DNA of 64,000 bases from a phage. Made by a program: the position numbers and the translations under genes. Of the stretch, positions 23,376-51,222 are shown in pieces; the stretch's first letter is position 1, and every line of letters starts with the position of its first letter. Location: the NCBI GenBank assembly GCA_024614665.1, contig GCA_024614665.1_4861.1. One strand, written 5' to 3'. Under the pieces are notes generated by a model, which saw nothing but the letters and a program-made list of their open reading frames with translations, was not told the origin of the DNA and searched no databases.

Positions 23376-23972
23376 TCACTGATGATCAACTTTCGGTTCA
23401 GACCACTCGGGGACTGGCGGAAGTTTAATATCAGTTGCGTATTCTGAAGGCACTGCGAGTGTGGTAAAGCCACGACATGCTAAATAATGCTGCATTCGTG
23501 CTGCCTGATTCGGTGTATCGGTGATCACCAAATGGGTCTTACGCATAAGTGCGAGTACCGCCTGTCCTTCTTGCGGCGTAGGTGTACGTGGATGCTTACT
23601 GATAATGCTCATTAACCAGTCACGCGCAATACCACCTACATTACAACTGGCCTCACGCAAATCAACCACACCTTCACCTTCACCCACCACCTGTTTGGTG
23701 GAGTTAGGATAAAAGCGATACGGTGCACGACGACGCTTACGACGTACTTCTGAAATAGCACGTCCAAGTATCATCTGTGCGTGTTTAACACTACAACCGT
23801 CCACCGGTCTACGCATGTTCGTTACTAAACAGGCAATTTCTAACACCTTACCGATTTGATAGCGACGCTTAAAGCCATGACGACTTATGTCTACGTATTC
23901 TGGAAGATTGCCGTTTTTATTGATGTTTGCAACCGTAATCAAAAACAGCGAATCGAGAATCATCTCAGACAT
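23376..23972 (-). CDS. hypothetical protein, about 198 aa
   Basis: ORF; hairpin terminator at 23349..23370. Confidence 0.55.
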   Translation of the reverse strand: MSEMILDSLFLITVANINKNGNLPEYVDISRHGFKRRYQIGKVLEIACLVTNMRRPVDGCSVKHAQMILGRAISEVRRKRRRAPYRFYPNSTKQVVGEGEGVVDLREASCNVGGIARDWLMSIISKHPRTPTPQEGQAVLALMRKTHLVITDTPNQAARMQHYLACRGFTTLAVPSEYATDIKLPPVPEWSEPKVDHQ

Positions 23973-27502: not shown

Positions 27503-28120
27503 TTAAACAAACTCACGATAACGAAAACCGTTAAGCTTCGAGATAGTCACTTCTTCTAACAGCTTACGCCCCCAGAAACCAGCCAGGTCGTATTCCAGAC
27601 CAGGCAGCGTTGTCTTGGTTAAGTCTTGGCCGATATGGTACGGTAGCGTAATGCGTGTGCGTGATTCGTAAACAAATGATTCGCATTCATAGACGAGGAC
27701 GTATCGATCGGTCGGGATGTCATACTCCACGTGGCATTGCGCGGGGTTTTCCCACGCCTTACTTACAACGATGCCGCGTTCTGCACACGCCGATTCAAAA
27801 CTAGCCATTGCAGGTTCAGACCATACGCGCAAATCGGCCGGTTTACCTTTCGACAAATCAAACCATGTGAGATGTTCAGGCTTCAACGTGATGATATCAT
27901 TGAGGCTCAATTTGCGGTAACGCACAACCACATAGTCGTCCGGCTTACTCTTATTAGTCAGCAAAGCACTTACACGACCGTCTGGTTCCGGCGGACCATA
28001 ACTCTCCACACGGATACGTTCTGTGGTCAGGGGCGTATAAACGGTTTCGGCATTAAAAGCATTGACTAAATCGAGCAAGGTTTGACTGTGATGGTGGTTA
28101 AAGTCAATAACAAAAGACAT
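27503..28120 (-). CDS. hypothetical protein, 205 aa
   Basis: ORF track; hairpin terminator downstream. Confidence 0.55.
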   Translation of the reverse strand: MSFVIDFNHHHSQTLLDLVNAFNAETVYTPLTTERIRVESYGPPEPDGRVSALLTNKSKPDDYVVVRYRKLSLNDIITLKPEHLTWFDLSKGKPADLRVWSEPAMASFESACAERGIVVSKAWENPAQCHVEYDIPTDRYVLVYECESFVYESRTRITLPYHIGQDLTKTTLPGLEYDLAGFWGRKLLEEVTISKLNGFRYREFV

Positions 28121-35148: not shown

Positions 35149-37890
35149 ATGGAAGATATTAGTAAATTAACGGGCGACCCCGCGGTAGCTGCCATACTGC
35201 GTAAGTCCACGAGCCCGTCGGCTCAGCAGCAACGCGGTAAGCGTGAAGATGGCGGTGTTACACCAACCCGTACAGAACTCACAGGTATCGCGAGTAGCCG
35301 CATTCGCACCGTTAAAAATGCCGAACGTATCTTTGATGCGCTCCCTGAGTTAGAGGTCATTGTTACCATCGCGACCTCCTCGCTCCTGTCCACAAAAGAT
35401 TTGATTAACACCACGCTGATTTACGACAACGTGGCGGATATCCCGATCGACCTGCGTCAACAGTTGTTAGAACCCGTGCGTGATTTCCATGACCACACGC
35501 GCCAGTTGCCCAACAAACTGTATCAGTGGATTTACGATGCACTGAAATCCAAAGGTGCGAGCCCAGTGTTGCTGATTTCAGATACCGGATTCGATGAACT
35601 CTTCGGCTTAAAGCCGTCTGTTGCAACCGAATCACTGCGCCGGAGCCAATCTGACTTCTTTGAACGTCAGTTGGGTATTCTAGGCAAGATTGGCGGTGAG
35701 AACAAACCGAAGGTTGGTGTAGAAAGTATTCTGGGCCGTGCACGTGGCGCTGACAAGCCCACCAAGCCACAAACCATTAAACTTAACTTTGCATCAGCCC
35801 CTAACAGTCCGTTTAAAGCAGACGGTATGTTAGCTTCCCTGGATATCGTTATCACCGACAACCCGCGTATTACCCTGTTACCAGAGGCTTATCGCCGTGT
35901 GGCACAGGAGAATGCTCGTACCGGCCTGTTCGGGCAGTTAGAGCAGTACGCATATGAACAACCTTCTACACCGACAGGTGCGTCAGCGTATAACGCTGAC
36001 CAGTTCACCGACAGCGAACAAGAGAAGGCAAAACTCGGTTTAATCAACATTGGCGACCTCAACGAAGCGTACCAGAAAACGCCTGAGCAAAAGCTTTACG
36101 GCGAAGTACCGAAGATGAGTTTCTCCGATGCTAACAAAATCGAATACACGGAACGATTACTGCCAGCAGAGTCCACACTCCCGCTCGTTATCGGCGACGA
36201 TGTTCGTAACCCCATAGGTTATCTGGCCATCGTTGACGAAATGGGTAACTTCATTAACTCGCGCTCCACACTTTACGGTGATGCGAACTTCATGAACTAC
36301 CTGAACAACGACGGTATGGTGGATTCAACAATCAACCGTGCAAATCTGGGGATGGGCAACACAACCCGAATCACACCAGACATTGCTAACCGCTTAACAG
36401 CGCGTTATGGTGAGATTGCTGAAGATCAGCTGACAAAAGCGTTGGGTGAGGCGTTGGGGGGTGCTGAGATTAGCATGACGGTAACCGAAACGTTCAGCCG
36501 TATCATGTTAGCGCGCCATCTGGCAAAACGTCATACGCAGGTTATTTATATTCCTGCGGAAAACCTTTGCTACTTCGCCACGGACTTTGATGAAGATGGC
36601 ATCGGTGTATCTATTACCGAACGTTCGTTCGTTATCTCTACTGTCCGTATGGCACTGTTGTTCGCTACCATGAACTCTGCGGTGTTAAACTCTGCGCGTC
36701 ACATGCAGTACGACATTGAGTTGGCACCAGATGACATGAACGGTCAGAAAACAATTGACCAGTTGAAAACAGACATCATGAACTCCTATAACCGTCGTCA
36801 ACCGATGTGGGGGGACATGAACGACACCTGGGCAATGACGACAAACGCAGGTATTGCGTTCAACGTTATCGGTAACGACTACTACGGTAGTACCAAAGTG
36901 TCTGTGTCGGATACCACGCCGGATTATAAATATCCGGATAAGGATTTCGACGAAGGTCTGTTACGCCGTACTTGCCATATCGCTGGTGTTGACCCTGACC
37001 TGGTAATGACCCCGGAGAACATCGAATTCGCTTCACAGATTTTCTCTAAATCGTTGCTGGTCACGCAACAAGTTGTTAAGAAGCAAGAGATTCTCTCTAA
37101 GCCACTGACGCGTTATGTAGTCAATGGGATGTTGGCCTCCCCGTCGTTACAATCAGCGATGATTAAAATCATTGCAGAGTATATCAATGCTAACGGCAAT
37201 GGGATGACTACTGACCAGGTTACGAAAAAGGTCTCTGAGTATCTGGCTGCCTTCATCAACGGTATGAAAGTAACCTTACCACCACCAGACACCTCAGCAG
37301 CAGCTTCGCAGATGGAGTTGTTCGATAAACGTACTGAGTTCTTTGAGAAGCTGGCTGATCTGGTTGTAACGGATGACATTGCTGCGCAACTTCAGCAGGA
37401 AGGCATCTCGATGGACCCGAACGATCTGAAGACGATGATCAAATCCTTCTATACGCGCAACTGGCTGCGTAAACAAGGCATTGAAACCGACTTCTTCGAT
37501 CTGGTTTACGACGATAAATCTCGTCAAGACAACATTACCATGATGACTGATGAAGCGATGGCTGCTTCGAAGACGCTGATTCAACTGGCGAAACGCTTTA
37601 CAGGTCGTCTGGAAACGTTGGCGAAAAATGCTGACCTTGACCCTAACGAATCTGCTGGCGGATTCAGTGGTGGTTTTGATGCGGGCGGTGACACCGGTGG
37701 CGGTGAAGGAGATCTCGGTGGTGGGGGTGACGATGATTTAGACCTCGATCTCGATACGGATGACGGAACCGACGGGGATAGTACAGGGGAAACGACTGAG
37801 TCGACCGAAACCACGGATACAACCACCGAGGGAACGGAAGGCACAGAAGACGAAGGGACTACCGACGACAACCCAGACAACGTCCTCTAA
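35149..37890 (+). CDS. large hypothetical protein, 913 aa, with acidic low-complexity C-terminal tail
   Basis: Long plus-strand ORF; GGAG SD 6 nt before ATG; C-terminal Gly/Asp/Thr/Glu-rich tail; UUCG hairpin plus U-tract terminator at 37918..37956. Confidence 0.65.
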   Translation: MEDISKLTGDPAVAAILRKSTSPSAQQQRGKREDGGVTPTRTELTGIASSRIRTVKNAERIFDALPELEVIVTIATSSLLSTKDLINTTLIYDNVADIPIDLRQQLLEPVRDFHDHTRQLPNKLYQWIYDALKSKGASPVLLISDTGFDELFGLKPSVATESLRRSQSDFFERQLGILGKIGGENKPKVGVESILGRARGADKPTKPQTIKLNFASAPNSPFKADGMLASLDIVITDNPRITLLPEAYRRVAQENARTGLFGQLEQYAYEQPSTPTGASAYNADQFTDSEQEKAKLGLINIGDLNEAYQKTPEQKLYGEVPKMSFSDANKIEYTERLLPAESTLPLVIGDDVRNPIGYLAIVDEMGNFINSRSTLYGDANFMNYLNNDGMVDSTINRANLGMGNTTRITPDIANRLTARYGEIAEDQLTKALGEALGGAEISMTVTETFSRIMLARHLAKRHTQVIYIPAENLCYFATDFDEDGIGVSITERSFVISTVRMALLFATMNSAVLNSARHMQYDIELAPDDMNGQKTIDQLKTDIMNSYNRRQPMWGDMNDTWAMTTNAGIAFNVIGNDYYGSTKVSVSDTTPDYKYPDKDFDEGLLRRTCHIAGVDPDLVMTPENIEFASQIFSKSLLVTQQVVKKQEILSKPLTRYVVNGMLASPSLQSAMIKIIAEYINANGNGMTTDQVTKKVSEYLAAFINGMKVTLPPPDTSAAASQMELFDKRTEFFEKLADLVVTDDIAAQLQQEGISMDPNDLKTMIKSFYTRNWLRKQGIETDFFDLVYDDKSRQDNITMMTDEAMAASKTLIQLAKRFTGRLETLAKNADLDPNESAGGFSGGFDAGGDTGGGEGDLGGGGDDDLDLDLDTDDGTDGDSTGETTESTETTDTTTEGTEGTEDEGTTDDNPDNVL

Positions 37891-37917: not shown

Positions 37918-37956
37918 TACCTCTCCCTTCGGGGAGAGGTACCTTTTCTTTTTTTA
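37918..37956. terminator. bidirectional UUCG hairpin terminator with U-tracts on both strands
   Basis: ACCTCTCCC-TTCG-GGGAGAGGT then TTTTCTTTTTTT on plus; A-run before it serves the convergent minus gene. Confidence 0.65.
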
Positions 37957-44006: not shown

Positions 44007-44030
44007 AAAGCTTACTCCCCGAAGGGAGTA
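44007..44030 (-). terminator. UUCG-loop hairpin terminator
   Basis: GCTTACTCCC-CGAA-GGGAGTAAGC with U-run; downstream of the 766-aa gene. Confidence 0.65.
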
Positions 44031-44064
44031 AGCTAATCTTAGGCAACGTAATCCTTACGGATTA

Positions 44065-46377: not shown

Positions 46378-46902
46378 TTATTTAGATAAATGACATGCGT
46401 ACAACTGCGTCAGCACTTCGTGCGCAGCAAACTGCGTCGACGTACTGAACGTATCATCCACGACACGAGTCTTGGGACGCATATATTTAAAAAGTTCTGC
46501 GCAGAACATCTTTTTCGCAGCGTGGTCTTCACTTAAAGAAAAACCCGGTCCGGATTTAGCTTCTGCAAAAGACGCCACAACAACATCGCCACGTTGTGAG
46601 AACACCCAACGTAAACGACCGTCGAATGATTCCCCATATAAATCAGCAAGGGTTTCATTCGTACCTTTCTCAACCAGGTTTAAGACCTGGTCATAATAAA
46701 GAGTCGGAAGTGCAGGTGGTGCCATAATCGATTTATAAATCGAAATAGGGTCACTCACTGGCAGTATGATGGAACTAAAGCCCGACGAGCAGTCATATAA
46801 CCAGTTAAAGAAGCTTGCTTGGAGTTCCTCCAACTTTTTAACGCCAGCCCCTTTATCTATGTTAGATTGAACTTCCCACGGTGGACTAAAACGAATTTGC
46901 AT
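46378..46902 (-). CDS. hypothetical protein, about 174 aa
   Basis: ATG at 46900-46902; start only 14 nt from the ATG of the divergent plus-strand gene. Confidence 0.5.
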   Translation of the reverse strand: MQIRFSPPWEVQSNIDKGAGVKKLEELQASFFNWLYDCSSGFSSIILPVSDPISIYKSIMAPPALPTLYYDQVLNLVEKGTNETLADLYGESFDGRLRWVFSQRGDVVVASFAEAKSGPGFSLSEDHAAKKMFCAELFKYMRPKTRVVDDTFSTSTQFAAHEVLTQLYACHLSK

Positions 46903-46916
46903 TTTAAGGATGCTCC

Positions 46917-48479
46917 ATGAATAGTAAAATGATGTTGATAACCGCCTTAGCCGCACTGTATACAGAATCTATGCTGACGGACCCTAGCAAGGATCATGAT
47001 GTCATAAGAAAAGTTCTGATGCAGATCAAGCTTCCGGAATATGCGGAAGATGGCGAAGAGCGCTTTGCACTCATCGAGATCAAGGACATTATCACATCTA
47101 TCATAGACGGCGGCATGGAATACGACCACGCGAGCGTTATGAAGCGCTTGAAGCTGGCCACCACTCAAGTACGTCCTCTATACGATACGATTACCAAATT
47201 CCTCGAAGACGATTTGCCCGAGGAAGAAGACAAACGTACCGAGCATCTTAATCGACAACTGTCTCAATATTATTTCCAATTACGTCAATGTTTACAGAGC
47301 GTCGAACTCAAAACAAAAATGGGTCGCGCGTTCGGAGCATTGAATGGAACTGAGACACGTGTTGATCTGAACACCGCAGTGCTCGAACTCAAAGAGGCGC
47401 TATCTACGTTCGGTGAACGCTCTCATAATAAGATTCCATCACTGGTCGGTGAGCTGGTTACAGATAATCGGGCTCCGTTTGTTAAAGTGTTCGACTCGAT
47501 TAACAAGAAAGCAGCAGGTAATGGTTTGCAGACGGGCTGGAAAGCCATTAACCAAATGCTCGGTTGTAACAAAGGGATTACCGAAGAACTGTGGCTAATG
47601 CCGGCGTTACCTTTTAACTGTAAGTCTTTGTTCAGTCTCTTGCTGAGCTTATCGATTCCTATCTTCAACACGCCTGAGAAAGTAATGGCGGATGTGAAGG
47701 GCACACTGCAACCAATTATTCTTGACTTGAGTTTAGAAAACGAACTCGACGTTAACTTAGCTTACGGCTATCAAGCTCTGTACGGTCATTTTGAAGGACA
47801 AGTTCCACAGATGACCATTTCACAGGATGCAACCGCTGAAGAGAAGTTAGCACACACAACAGCAATGTCTGATTACCTCTGTGGTAAGATTCGCGCAAAC
47901 GGTTGGGACTACGTTTTCCAAAAGCACACCAACTCCGATTTTAAAGTGCACTACATCAACGACCTTATTCTCGACTTACGTCGTCGCGGTTATCATGTTG
48001 TTGGCATTCGCGCAGACTACTTAGGCACAATCAGCAAAGCAGGACACGGCAACGGTATTGCCGGGAGTGATATCAAAGAAATTTATCGTATTGCTCGTAA
48101 CATTCAAGTGGTGCGCAACCGTGGGTTCTTAATTGCCCCACACCAGATTTCCCCAGAAGGTAAGCGCTTAAAAGCGTTAGACCCGGTAGGTTTCTGTAAG
48201 AACTTACCTGGTCGTGGTCTTTACGATAGTTGTTCGAGCCTTGATAACGAGGCCGATGGTGAAATGTATTTTAACAAGCGTGTGGTCAACGGCCATAGCT
48301 TCTTAGAAGTTCAACGCGGTAAGCACCGCACCATTATCGATACTAAAGAATCTTATCACTACACAGTGATACCTTTCCAGGATGTTGGCATCCTGCCTTG
48401 GGATTGTGATAAAGAAGAAACCGTAACAGCGTCGTCTATCAACTTCTTCACCGGTGGAATGGGTGATGATTTGTTCTAA
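46917..48479 (+). CDS. large hypothetical protein, 520 aa
   Basis: Long plus-strand ORF; AAGGA SD 6 nt before ATG; hairpin 48489..48508 after stop. Confidence 0.6.
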   Translation: MNSKMMLITALAALYTESMLTDPSKDHDVIRKVLMQIKLPEYAEDGEERFALIEIKDIITSIIDGGMEYDHASVMKRLKLATTQVRPLYDTITKFLEDDLPEEEDKRTEHLNRQLSQYYFQLRQCLQSVELKTKMGRAFGALNGTETRVDLNTAVLELKEALSTFGERSHNKIPSLVGELVTDNRAPFVKVFDSINKKAAGNGLQTGWKAINQMLGCNKGITEELWLMPALPFNCKSLFSLLLSLSIPIFNTPEKVMADVKGTLQPIILDLSLENELDVNLAYGYQALYGHFEGQVPQMTISQDATAEEKLAHTTAMSDYLCGKIRANGWDYVFQKHTNSDFKVHYINDLILDLRRRGYHVVGIRADYLGTISKAGHGNGIAGSDIKEIYRIARNIQVVRNRGFLIAPHQISPEGKRLKALDPVGFCKNLPGRGLYDSCSSLDNEADGEMYFNKRVVNGHSFLEVQRGKHRTIIDTKESYHYTVIPFQDVGILPWDCDKEETVTASSINFFTGGMGDDLF

Positions 48480-48488
48480 CGAACACTG

Positions 48489-48508
48489 GGGAGCTTAGGC
48501 TCCCCTAC
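48489..48508 (+). terminator. hairpin after plus-strand gene (weak U-tract)
   Basis: GGGGAGC-TTAG-GCTCCCC 10 nt after stop of 46917..48479; no U-run, so possibly leaky. Confidence 0.35.
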
Positions 48509-48571
48509 GGGCAGTTTATGCGTCCTGCCAAGATCAAAAAAAAAATACGACGAACTATTTATATGCATGGA

Positions 48572-48598
48572 ATTACCCGAGTGTTCCAGCACTCGGGT
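48572..48598. terminator. hairpin ACCCGAGTG-TTCCAG-CACTCGGGT
   Basis: Perfect 9-bp stem between the plus gene end and small ORF B; A10 run at 48538..48547. Confidence 0.4.
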
Positions 48599-48613
48599 AA
48601 GAGTTATTTCATG

Positions 48614-48760
48614 TTAACTTTTGTTTAGTAGTATTTCACCTCCTAAACCCTTGATACGACGAACAGTGTTCTGCTTGGGCGCAGTCAACTGTTGTACACG
48701 TTGGTTGAATTGGGTTTGCTTAACGTAATAGTTAAGTATTTGCGAACGTAGTTGTTCCAT
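48614..48760 (-). CDS. small Gln-rich protein, 48 aa (MEQLRSQILNYYVKQTQFNQRVQQLTAPKQNTVRRIKGLGGEILLNKS); paralog of 48873..49019
   Basis: AAGGAGG SD 7 nt before ATG; conserved C-terminal IKGLGG(D/E)I..NK shared with tandem neighbour; absent from ORF track at full-length start. Confidence 0.5.
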   Translation of the reverse strand: MEQLRSQILNYYVKQTQFNQRVQQLTAPKQNTVRRIKGLGGEILLNKS

Positions 48761-48845
48761 GTAGTGCCTCCTTAGGCAGGTTGTTAATATATCGCTGCGC
48801 TGTGGTGGTACACAATGCACCGATATACTGTCACGGGAGTTAAAA

Positions 48846-48866
48846 GGGGTGCTCGAACACCCCTGG
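48846..48866 (-). terminator. hairpin between the two small paralogous ORFs
   Basis: GGGGTG-CTCGAA-CACCCC directly downstream of small ORF A. Confidence 0.45.
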
Positions 48867-48872
48867 TTAGTG

Positions 48873-49019
48873 TTACTTCTTATTGAAGATGATGTCACCT
48901 CCTAGTCCTTTAATGGTACGGGTGGAAGTCTGCGGTTGGCGGGTAACCTCTTGCAGACGTTGTTGAAAAGCGACATGTTTCAGCTGTTGCTGACGCAGTT
49001 GTTGCATAAAGGTATTCAT
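48873..49019 (-). CDS. small Gln-rich protein, 48 aa (MNTFMQQLRQQQLKHVAFQQRLQEVTRQPQTSTRTIKGLGGDIIFNKK); paralog of 48614..48760
   Basis: GAGG SD before ATG at 49017-49019; tandem paralog; not in ORF track (under 60 aa). Confidence 0.5.
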   Translation of the reverse strand: MNTFMQQLRQQQLKHVAFQQRLQEVTRQPQTSTRTIKGLGGDIIFNKK

Positions 49020-49044
49020 GTTAACCTCTAAGTGGATGTGAATA

Positions 49045-49080
49045 AGCTCTCTCCTTCGGGAGAGAGCGCCTTTTATTTTC
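49045..49080 (+). terminator. plus-oriented UUCG hairpin terminator
   Basis: GCTCTCTCC-TTCG-GGAGAGAGC followed on the plus strand by GCCTTTTATTTTCTTTTCGG; faces the minus terminator at 49098..49123. Confidence 0.5.
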
Positions 49081-49097
49081 TTTTCGGAAAATAAATA

Positions 49098-49123
49098 TAA
49101 AACCCTCTTACCCGAAGGTAAGA
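49098..49123 (-). terminator. UUCG-loop hairpin terminator (identical to 21897..21922)
   Basis: CCCTCTTACC-CGAA-GGTAAGAGGG with U-run on the minus strand; downstream of 49133..49993. Confidence 0.6.
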
Positions 49124-49132
49124 GGGATACTA

Positions 49133-49993
49133 CTACGGTTTATAATCAACTTCGTTGATCTTACCGCAAGCCGGACAAGCAATGTTCATTGTCTGCGAAG
49201 TGTAGCGATGTGTTCTCGGTACCGTTGCGACATGATTGCGGTTACAGCCGGAACACGTCCAACCGACCACTGGTGCCTTCGATTGTTTCGGGGCAGGAGT
49301 GTCTTCTTTTAACAATGCGACTACCGCGTGAAATTTACGAAGTTCTGCGTTAACATGCGCTTCCCAGTCGGCGTCCAAACGCGCCGTGAACCAACGTTGA
49401 ATCTTCTGGCCAAGGCCGTCTTGATTTTCTTCTTCATGGGACATCACAAACTTGAGATTTGCGCGACCCCACTGCACAACGTTCTCTACTTTAATCCCGT
49501 CTACGGTGTCGCTGATTGGCGTATAGTTAAAAGTTGGATAGGTGAGATAACAAGCTTCAGCTGTTGCAAAGACCGTATTGCCTTCAAACAGCGCCATGGC
49601 CTCATCGCCCTTAGCATCCTTCTGTGCGGCTTCCAATCGTGGGCAATGGAAACCTTCAAGTTGCTGGATTTTGGTCGTTAGCGCATTGATACCCTGCAGC
49701 ACAGCGATACGCTTTTTGCTGTCTGTAATGGTTGCCATTACCTTGCACAACGCGCGCGAGATAGCGCTATACATTGACGTTTTGCGGTTTTCATCGAGGA
49801 AACGCTCTTGCTGCTCCAGGTCGTAAGAAGACAGGCCGTAGCTCTGCCCTTCGACCAACACGACGTAAGTACGACGTTTGTCGCGGTCCAGCTGGACAAT
49901 GGCCGCATCGGTTAACGGATCGCTAGCCAATACTTCGTGGTCGGGAGGTAGGGGGAAATCTGAACTTTTGATGAAATCAGTAATGCTGTACAT
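49133..49993 (-). CDS. hypothetical protein with C-terminal zinc ribbon, 286 aa
   Basis: CSGCNRNH ... CPACG near C-terminus; hairpin terminator 49098..49123. Confidence 0.55.
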   Translation of the reverse strand: MYSITDFIKSSDFPLPPDHEVLASDPLTDAAIVQLDRDKRRTYVVLVEGQSYGLSSYDLEQQERFLDENRKTSMYSAISRALCKVMATITDSKKRIAVLQGINALTTKIQQLEGFHCPRLEAAQKDAKGDEAMALFEGNTVFATAEACYLTYPTFNYTPISDTVDGIKVENVVQWGRANLKFVMSHEEENQDGLGQKIQRWFTARLDADWEAHVNAELRKFHAVVALLKEDTPAPKQSKAPVVGWTCSGCNRNHVATVPRTHRYTSQTMNIACPACGKINEVDYKP

Positions 49994-51078: not shown

Positions 51079-51196
51079 CACCCTCTATAACGCTCTCAAA
51101 CGCGTTTTGAGAGCTTTTATCACTATAGAGGGTCGTTCTACCGTTAGAGTGGCTTTAGAAGGTTGTGAGTGCGTTTAGAGGGCTAAAATAAAGAGA
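51079..51196. promoter_or_regulatory. structured non-coding element: nested 9-bp inverted repeats followed by four TTAGAG(G)G-like direct repeats
   Basis: CCCTCTATA (51082-51090) pairs with TATAGAGGG (51124-51132); inner GCTCTCAAA (51092-51100) pairs with TTTGAGAGC (51106-51114); TAGAG repeats at about 51126, 51145, 51156, 51176. Confidence 0.45.
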
Positions 51197-51222
51197 CCTG
51201 GTCTCACAAGGAGACCAGGCAC
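51197..51222 (-). terminator. hairpin terminator
   Basis: CCTGGTCTC-ACAAG-GAGACCAGG then U-rich tract; downstream of 51227..52024. Confidence 0.55.

Follow-up and report, generated by a model that had tools for sequence, protein, structure and literature searches.

Where does plus-strand transcription end in a region where nearly every gene is encoded on the minus strand, and what does it cross on the way? This question is raised by the helicase locus of the Salmonella jumbo phage SPN3US, a phiKZ-related member of the genus Seoulvirus. The window that we analyzed is a stretch of 64,000 nucleotides (99.6% identity to SPN3US; the reverse complement of ~52.4-116.5 kb of the record). About 85 of its genes are minus-strand genes; the plus strand has just two, gp73, which encodes the helicase, and a gene for a virion protein (35149-37890). 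The order at the locus is the major capsid protein (MCP) gene gp75 (minus), gp74 (minus), gp73 (plus), the small genes gp72 and gp71 (minus) and gp70 (minus). A first-pass annotation had proposed that plus-strand transcription from the helicase gene runs antisense through both small genes up to a terminator in front of gp70. On the sequence evidence, the likeliest reading, which we judge an even call, is that helicase-side RNA passes antisense over gp72 and gp71 as far as this element, here called hpA, and terminates there, having entered by read-through, from an internal start or by both routes. The features on which the argument turns are as follows.

46917..48479, plus strand: gp73, a DnaB-like helicase (Pfam PF20307, E = 1e-124; stop codon 48477-48479).
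48488..48505, plus strand: hp1, a hairpin that follows the helicase gene, lacks a U-tract and is conserved with compensatory changes across 13 lineages.
48614..48760, minus strand: gp72, a basic 48-residue protein (phrog_18219, E = 7e-27; pI 10.6).
48873..49019, minus strand: gp71, a basic 48-residue paralog of gp72 (phrog_18219, E = 1e-27; pI 11.6).
49046..49084, plus strand: hpA with its U-tract, intrinsic-terminator-like (hairpin 49046-49067, T-tract 49071-49084).
49072..49095, no strand assigned: hpB, an AU-rich inverted repeat, TTTATTTTC-N6-GAAAATAAA, made by two opposing U-tracts.
49088..49126, minus strand: hpC with its U-tract, the gp70 operon terminator (terminator score d = +29.6).
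49133..49993, minus strand: gp70 (286 residues), the final gene of the upstream minus-strand operon.

hpA consists of GCTCTCTCC-TTCG-GGAGAGAGC followed by GCC-TTTTATTTTCTTTT, with both the UUCG loop and the U-tract on the plus strand. It is a stable GC-rich stem-loop (9-bp stem with six G-C pairs, -16.5 kcal/mol), and its plus-strand tail is GCC-UUUUAUUUU; the pair that it forms with hpC lies 566 nt past the helicase stop codon. On the other side, hpC (CCCTCTTACC-CGAA-GGTAAGAGGG, 49103-49126) has a 10-bp stem and a minus-strand UUCG loop, begins 7 nt past the gp70 stop codon and continues into the minus-strand tail UUUUAUAUUUAUUUU (49102-49088); it thus has the arrangement of an intrinsic terminator, a stem-loop that runs straight into a U-tract behind a gene on its own strand. 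The first-pass annotation had called a plus-oriented UUCG hairpin with a U-tract within a few bases of hpA, facing a minus-strand terminator, and both calls hold: hpC (49126-49103) and hpA stand tail to tail. Perfect hairpins of at least 9 bp number 21 in the window against 0.89 expected from 100 dinucleotide shuffles. A T-tract follows on the plus side in three of them, where the shuffles give 0.02, and on the minus side in 13, where they give 0.

The T-tract of hpA and the A-tract of hpC are exact inverted repeats, and the palindrome that they make, hpB, has one match in the window where none is expected. Its arms co-vary among relatives, reading TTATTTTTC and GAAAAATAA in SNU29, TTTATTTTTTC and GAAAAAATAAA in contig L026, and CTTTAACTT and AAGTTAAAG in L020 and L021. 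A search of IMG/VR with the hpB palindrome returned 112 matches, nearly all of them chance occurrences in AT-rich genomes. Among relatives bearing the small-gene cassette, hpA, hpB and hpC are always present upstream of the small gene. The module is not built as a single-hairpin bidirectional terminator: its two GC-rich hairpins are separate, hpC has no plus-side U-tract and the minus-side tail of hpA is weak.

To assign these hairpins to strands, we drew on a comparison of the island between the helicase gene and gp70 across Seoulvirus, Machinavirus, Erskinevirus, Derbicusvirus and Wellingtonvirus phages and uncultivated contigs. Because the MAFFT alignment of the module mis-registers stems of unequal length, pairing was counted per sequence. 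hp1, hpA and hpC are all conserved with compensatory changes. The variants argue firmly that hpC acts in the minus-strand RNA: in five of eight stem variants, a minus-strand G·U pair corresponds to a plus-strand A·C mismatch (~5 kcal/mol) at varying stem positions, and the UUCG loop is on the minus strand in all eight. For hpA, the assignment is to the plus-strand RNA and is tentative. All seven of its stem variants are fully paired and the plus-side T-tract is always present; in one Machinavirus variant, two G·U pairs form in plus-strand RNA alone (-4.9 kcal/mol), and UUCG, the loop of three stem variants, is on the plus strand in these and on the minus strand in none.

The genome offers a base rate for how genes of reversed orientation end. 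At nine other reversed-gene ends in SPN3US (window 37918-37941; record 6.4, 14.4, 28.6, 41.2, 46.6, 137.5, 138.8 and 160.0 kb), a U-tailed hairpin lies no more than ~70 nt from the stop codon, and the helicase is the sole exception among the ten ends examined. The other plus-strand gene of the window ends in a single bidirectional terminator, 28 nt past its stop codon. Several of the reversed-gene tails (TAC-TTTTATTTT, CC-TTTTATTTT, TACC-TTTTATTT and GGC-TTTATTT) share the design of GCC-TTTTATTTT at hpA, a spacer of 2-4 nt and then TTTTATTT. From the helicase stop codon to hpA, there is no other canonical plus-strand terminator. Antisense-oriented terminator-like hairpins that do not stand beside a reversed gene number three in 166 kb of genome, and two of these, hpA and 51092-51114, lie at most 2.7 kb downstream of the helicase gene.

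What does follow the helicase gene closely, 9 nt past its stop codon, is hp1 (GGGGAGC-TTAG-GCTCCCC). As the first-pass annotation had it, this hairpin (48488-48505) is without a U-tract, and this is true of both strands: it is followed by TACGGGCAG in the plus sense and by AGTGTTCG in the minus sense, the plus-strand tail reads UACGGGCAGUUUAUG and the terminator score is negative in both directions. Compensatory changes affect five of six pairs (13 lineages). The hp1 loops are mostly UUCG, UCCG or UACG on the plus strand (inverted in L150), and we lean toward placing hp1 in the plus-strand RNA.

Relatives that lack the cassette show what surrounds hp1 without it. In phiEaH2, Asesino, ChrisDB, Caitlin, L022, Kwan and L029, a plus-strand U-tract terminator comes soon after hp1, the order being hp1, a TTATGYGT motif, an A-tract and then the terminator with its plus-side U-tract. 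Kwan has a face-to-face terminator pair without any small gene; in CR5 and Phobos, also cassette-less, the terminator tail is weak and hp1 is absent. A U-tract terminator downstream of hp1 means that plus-strand transcripts evidently pass it, and hp1 is probably not the final stop of helicase transcripts. Taken with the base rate at reversed-gene ends, the cassette-less relatives make hpA look like the helicase-side terminator, displaced by the phrog_18219 cassette.

Plus-strand RNA may also arise within the spacer between hp1 and gp72, which holds the following elements.

48516..48523, plus strand: motif TTATGCGT, consensus TTATGYGT, in 12 of 13 lineages; the best-conserved block of the spacer.
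48536..48545, no strand assigned: A10 tract, read as U10 on the minus strand; every lineage has it, at lengths of A7 to A11.
48562..48565, plus strand: a second conserved TATG, candidate internal antisense start, in 14 of 14 cassette-bearing islands.
48573..48600, no strand assigned: hp3, a hairpin of 11-12 bp with ten stem variants, flanked by the A-tract and the gp72 stop codon.

In phiKZ, late promoters carry TATG at the start site and middle promoters an AT-rich element near -24 (PMC7598289). The A-tract and TATG (48536-48565) together have these sequence features in all 14 cassette-bearing islands and form a candidate promoter; the A-tract is 12-16 nt from the TATG, and its centre lies 19.5-24.5 nt upstream of the G. 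This second TATG is missing in eight of nine cassette-less lineages. The bases around it have diverged, and in L019-L021 its spacing is kept to the A-tract and not to the hp3 analogue. We regard an antisense RNA of ~515 nt that would run from this element to the module (~48565 to ~49080) as a serious candidate.

The events that we propose would run as follows. The phrog_18219 cassette would sit between the helicase gene and the terminator that ends helicase-side plus-strand transcription. Helicase mRNA would read past the U-tract-less hp1, or RNA would start at the conserved A-tract and TATG (48536-48565), an alternative internal source of antisense RNA. It would then pass hp3, where a fraction may stop, lie antisense over gp72, gp71 and both ribosome-binding sites, and be released at hpA and its U-tract (49046-49084). 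From the opposite side, hpC (49126-49088) would end the gp70 operon, and hpA, hpB and hpC would together form the tail-to-tail boundary of convergent transcription units. The phage RNA polymerases would be what obeys these signals. Antisense control of gp71 and gp72, which the first-pass annotation also raised, is a speculative extension of this scheme.

Of that annotation's central proposal, plus-strand read-through antisense as far as hpA, one part stands: hpA is terminator-like, the helicase gene has no U-tailed hairpin nearby, and the relatives agree. The other part is put in doubt by hp3, by contig L026 and by the internal TATG. The island folds far better than shuffled sequence on both strands (z = -10 and -7), mainly through its palindromes. 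hp3, hpB and two hairpins around the small genes (48845-48864 and 48779-48838) go beyond what had been annotated.

Several observations weigh against antisense transcription that ends at hpA. The 3-nt GCC spacer before UUUUAUUUUCUUUU in the hpA tail lowers its classical terminator score, a formula so sensitive to such a spacer that it does not give hpA a fair rank. The case for hpA in the plus-strand RNA consists of one wobble-bearing variant and of loop orientation, and the loops of hp1 and hp3 flip between relatives. The AT-rich spacer of the module is conserved more tightly than U-tracts normally need, which hints at another role. A search of a paper library for an SPN3US or Seoulvirus transcriptome found none. 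In phage 201phi2-1, 52 of 132 mapped 3' ends look intrinsic and most do not, so read-through does not follow from a missing U-tract. In contig L026, a full plus-strand terminator precedes the A-tract, yet the contig keeps a perfect hpA (UUCG loop and U-tract) after its small gene; hpA is therefore not simply the helicase terminator and travels with the cassette. An internal start at the A-tract and TATG would explain why L026 keeps hpA. Closer to the helicase gene, hp1 and TTATGYGT might themselves be a spaced phiKZ-type terminator. A scanning tool ranks hp3 as terminator-like on the plus strand, and its 12-bp stem is followed by GAG-UUAUUUCAU, near the phiKZ tail motif TTATKYYGT; many transcripts may therefore stop at ~48610.

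The alternative that survives best, one that we consider unlikely though of real weight, builds on these last points: helicase transcripts would end at hp1 and TTATGYGT or at hp3, by U-tract-independent or weak-tract termination or by trimming back to a stable hairpin, and hpA would be a fail-safe insulator that catches rare read-through before its antisense entry into the gp70 operon, leaving antisense RNA negligible. The conservation of hp1 with compensatory changes right after the stop codon fits this account, as do the phiKZ-like character of TTATGYGT and of the hp3 tail TTATTTCAT (both resemble TTATKYYGT), the flagging of hp3 as a plus-strand terminator, the mostly non-canonical 3' ends of 201phi2-1 and the full terminator ahead of the cassette in L026. 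Against it, cassette-less relatives keep a plus-strand U-tract terminator after hp1 (weak in CR5 and Phobos) that would be needless if hp1 sufficed. The hp3 tail is GAGUUAUUUC in SPN3US, where it is borderline terminator-like in the plus sense, but SNU29 and L026 have no U-rich tail at hp3, and the hpA stem and U-tract are perfect in every cassette-bearing lineage, which suggests regular use. Two further comparisons bear on the same elements. TTATGYGT resembles the phiKZ TATG promoter as well as the phiKZ tail and could be either a spaced terminator tail or a TATG-type start site; neither it nor TATGACC shows overall enrichment as a motif across the window. For hp3, all ten stem variants pair, the loop flips between lineages and the SNU6 variant favours the minus strand, leaving its strand evidence uninformative.

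Slightly less probable again is a reading in which the island is a self-contained mobile sense/antisense cassette, comprising a phrog_18219 protein and a dedicated cis-antisense RNA. That RNA would start at a conserved phage-polymerase promoter, the TATG at 48562-48565 with the A-tract at -24; its 5' end would fold into the hp3 stem-loop, its body would span the small gene or genes completely and its 3' end would lie at hpA, while hpA, hpB and hpC would insulate the cassette from the gp70 operon. Such an arrangement would explain why hpA moves with the cassette in L026 even though the helicase gene there has its own terminator.

A third possibility, which we hold improbable, is that hpA and hpB form a minus-strand expression module, with the palindrome as promoter or operator, hpA as a 5'-leader stem-loop that stabilizes the gp71 mRNA and the plus-side T-tract incidental. 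Since hpC is strong (d = +29.6), a promoter for gp71 itself would have to fit within 68 nt. Between genera, the stems have changed but the spacer CTTTTATTTTCTTTGCGAAAATAAATA hardly varies, so that a minus-strand function as promoter or operator is conceivable; the two arms of the perfect palindrome hpB co-vary, as for a dimer-binding site; a TCACA motif is conserved between hpA and the ribosome-binding site; and the module travels with the cassette in L026. The strand evidence points the other way, as A·C mismatches cost the Machinavirus hpA 4.9 kcal/mol in the minus-strand RNA, and hpA has its UUCG on the plus strand, whereas the minus-strand terminators of the genome have UUCG on the minus strand. 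Nor is there an early-promoter or TATG motif upstream of gp71 on the minus strand. Finally, it is very improbable that the hairpins are DNA-level palindromes that mark cassette edges and promote recombination, gain, loss or inversion with little transcriptional role, since strand-specific G·U pairs and UUCG loops point to RNA-level selection and the same hairpin and U-tract design follows ordinary genes genome-wide, even though cassette presence and copy number vary among close relatives, hp3 and hp1 loops are inverted between relatives and L026 looks like a cassette inserted at the A-tract.

Loop inversion itself is seen at both hairpins: among close relatives, loops are reverse-complemented with stems unchanged (hp3, TTACAG versus CTGTAA; hp1, TTAG versus CTAA in L150), which suggests palindrome-mediated inversion of the loop. 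Two other candidates were rejected. A small plus-strand open reading frame (ORF) from the conserved ATG of TTATGCGT (48518-48628) does not persist among relatives, as the A7-A11 tract shifts its frame; just 'MRP' is conserved, and in SNU29 a stop follows after nine codons. The structure of hp2 (GGCAG...CTGCC) is not conserved.

Orphan terminator-like elements also occur elsewhere. At 23743-23762 of the SPN3US record (L155), a terminator-like hairpin is oriented against the surrounding genes, 20 nt past the stop codon of a gene on the plus strand of the record. In the window, 51080-51130 and 51185-51219 form a second face-to-face pair in a region of minus-strand genes only. Its plus-oriented hairpin (51092-51114, tail UUUUAUCAC) is nested in an inverted repeat (ACCCTCTATA/TATAGAGGGT) and faces the minus-strand terminator 51197-51219, just upstream of an early promoter; similar elements are found in relatives.

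The remaining features of the locus concern the 5' end of the helicase gene and the leaders of the small genes.

46858..46861, plus strand: candidate helicase promoter core, TATG (G = 46861), with CTTTTTAAC at about -25; inside the gp74 coding sequence.
48779..48838, minus strand: long hairpin with imperfect pairing, in the gp72 leader of two-gene phages only (-20.9 kcal/mol for the minus-strand RNA, -17.0 for the plus-strand RNA).
48845..48864, minus strand: hairpin behind gp71; its tail is UUUAAC.

Upstream of the helicase gene, the block CTTTTT(A/T)AC-N-ATCTATG, here CTTTTTAAC-N-ATCTATG, is invariant in all 18 lineages, and by the phiKZ TATG late-promoter rule (PMC7598289) its TATG at 46858-46861 is a candidate helicase promoter. 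The helicase and gp74 start codons lie head to head, 14 nt apart (window 46858-46917). Given this arrangement and the TATG inside gp74, the 5' regions of the two genes must be mutually antisense, and the promoter for gp74 and the MCP gene must sit inside the helicase gene. Across the gene-upstream gaps of the window, TATG occurs 16 times in sense and twice in antisense orientation, and this bias is a candidate signature of the middle or late promoters of this phage group. The element, often TATGAC(C), stands 24-36 nt before start codons, with an AT-rich stretch or TTTAC ~22 nt further upstream; examples precede the starts at 28120, 52024, 16463, 15884, 6709 and 58676.

A clear early-promoter consensus, TTTCAGATATATATTACYTAGGTGAGA, occurs on the minus strand of the window (motif 5' ends 2690, 21832, 23327, 51052 and 59555). 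A minus-strand terminator hairpin stands a short way upstream of every copy, and the conserved leader AATCGACYATTAATCTWAAGGAGT comes after it; a variant lies ~40 nt downstream, in the minus sense, of the terminator 44009-44034, and the core is conserved in Erwinia and Cronobacter relatives. An early-promoter scan of both small-gene leaders gave a single weak match (12/15), upstream of gp72. The hairpin at 48779-48838 includes this kind of sequence, GATATATTAAC, which matches the early-promoter core at 12 of 15 positions. Between the two paralogs, the hairpin at 48845-48864 probably acts as an attenuator or a weak terminator. A scan of 46-51 kb with Rfam 15 gave no family at gathering score and only sub-threshold matches to miRNA models, which are due to the hairpins.

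Judged by their sequences, gp71 and gp72 are real genes. Aligned, they share a C-terminal KGLGG[DE]I motif, and both are hydrophilic (GRAVY -0.87 for gp71 and -0.76 for gp72), with a top 15-residue hydropathy of 0.27 and no hydrophobic stretch. We considered a type I toxin-antitoxin pair and ruled it out, because proteins this basic and hydrophilic are not small membrane-active peptides. The cassette varies in copy number: SPN3US has both genes, Lh1B the gp71 type only and SPAsTU the gp72 type only, and ~250 bp corresponding to window 48611-48864 are missing in many Seoulviruses (comparison with L002 and L005). IMG/VR and metagenome scans with the small protein found close relatives and nothing further. 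The C-terminus of the neighbouring gp70 (window 49133-49270) ends in a CxxC...CxxC zinc-ribbon-like segment, and the protein has a weak PHROG match to phrog_6417, annotated 'translational regulator' (E = 0.002). phiKZ likewise has a reversed helicase gene beside capsid genes, with the small genes after it in the same orientation. Within the reversed helicase-side gene block of phiKZ lies an unannotated gap of ~680 bp (NC_004629 114629-115313; L036 3630-4314), between PHIKZ117.2 and 117.3.

SPN3US-like phages serve as a genetic model of those phages that form a nucleus and transcribe with RNA polymerases of their own. If helicase-side RNA does cross the cassette and stop at hpA, the locus would be a natural test of the stop signals of these polymerases, presenting in turn a hairpin alone, one with a weak tail and one with a U-tract. 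It would also exemplify a gene cassette lodged in the 3' region of a convergent replication gene, and would supply a candidate antisense RNA over a conserved family of small proteins of unknown function. The early-promoter consensus, the sense-biased TATG and the TTTTATTT tails would aid the annotation of transcription units in Seoulvirus, Machinavirus and related genera.

How does this arrangement compare with known systems? In the excludons and long antisense 3' untranslated regions (UTRs) of Listeria and Staphylococcus, an mRNA overlaps neighbours on the opposite strand. The helicase mRNA would likewise run antisense over its neighbours, with mutual interference or RNase III cleavage possible; unlike those systems, SPN3US is a phage with its own multisubunit RNA polymerases, and the case here is made from sequence. 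Phages also encode cis-antisense RNAs, such as lambda OOP and P22 sar. Should the A-tract and TATG be a promoter, SPN3US would similarly have a dedicated RNA of ~515 nt with its own terminator, but one that would cover whole genes and not a short target. As in morons and in the T4-type mobile regulatory cassettes (PeSL) that Arbiol et al. are said to have described in 2010, a small gene is bracketed by stem-loops and varies among relatives; unlike PeSL, the SPN3US cassette has no repeated promoter-stem-loop unit, and its flanking hairpins differ from each other. Single-hairpin bidirectional intrinsic terminators, in which an A-tract, a hairpin and a U-tract combine, were reportedly found in bacteria by Ju et al. 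in 2019, and such terminators also stand at other convergent junctions of SPN3US. The region of hpA and hpC would resemble them in stopping convergent transcription from both sides; it differs in its split design, in which two one-way GC-rich hairpins have U-tracts that meet as a third, AU-rich palindrome.

The closest parallels are in phiKZ itself. Its terminators are hairpins followed by TTAT, of which 9% are antisense to annotated genes, and antisense RNAs are described in both PAK_P3 and phiKZ (PMC10914365). ONT-cappable-seq has also defined bidirectional termination regions in phiKZ, with opposite sites 23-183 nt apart (Putzeys et al. 2024, PMC10914365). The SPN3US pair is similarly opposed and close, has TTAT-containing tails and belongs to the same family of phages with their own RNA polymerases; its hairpin centres are 58 nt apart and its predicted release sites a few nucleotides apart, a spacing in keeping with the phiKZ regions. 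Whereas those regions lie between the ends of convergent genes (PMC10914365), the sites in SPN3US are predicted and lie between gp70 and gp71, both on the minus strand. Because convergent terminator regions and antisense terminators are already documented in phiKZ, the SPN3US locus would be a new instance, with an unusual split layout of three hairpins, and not a new kind of system.

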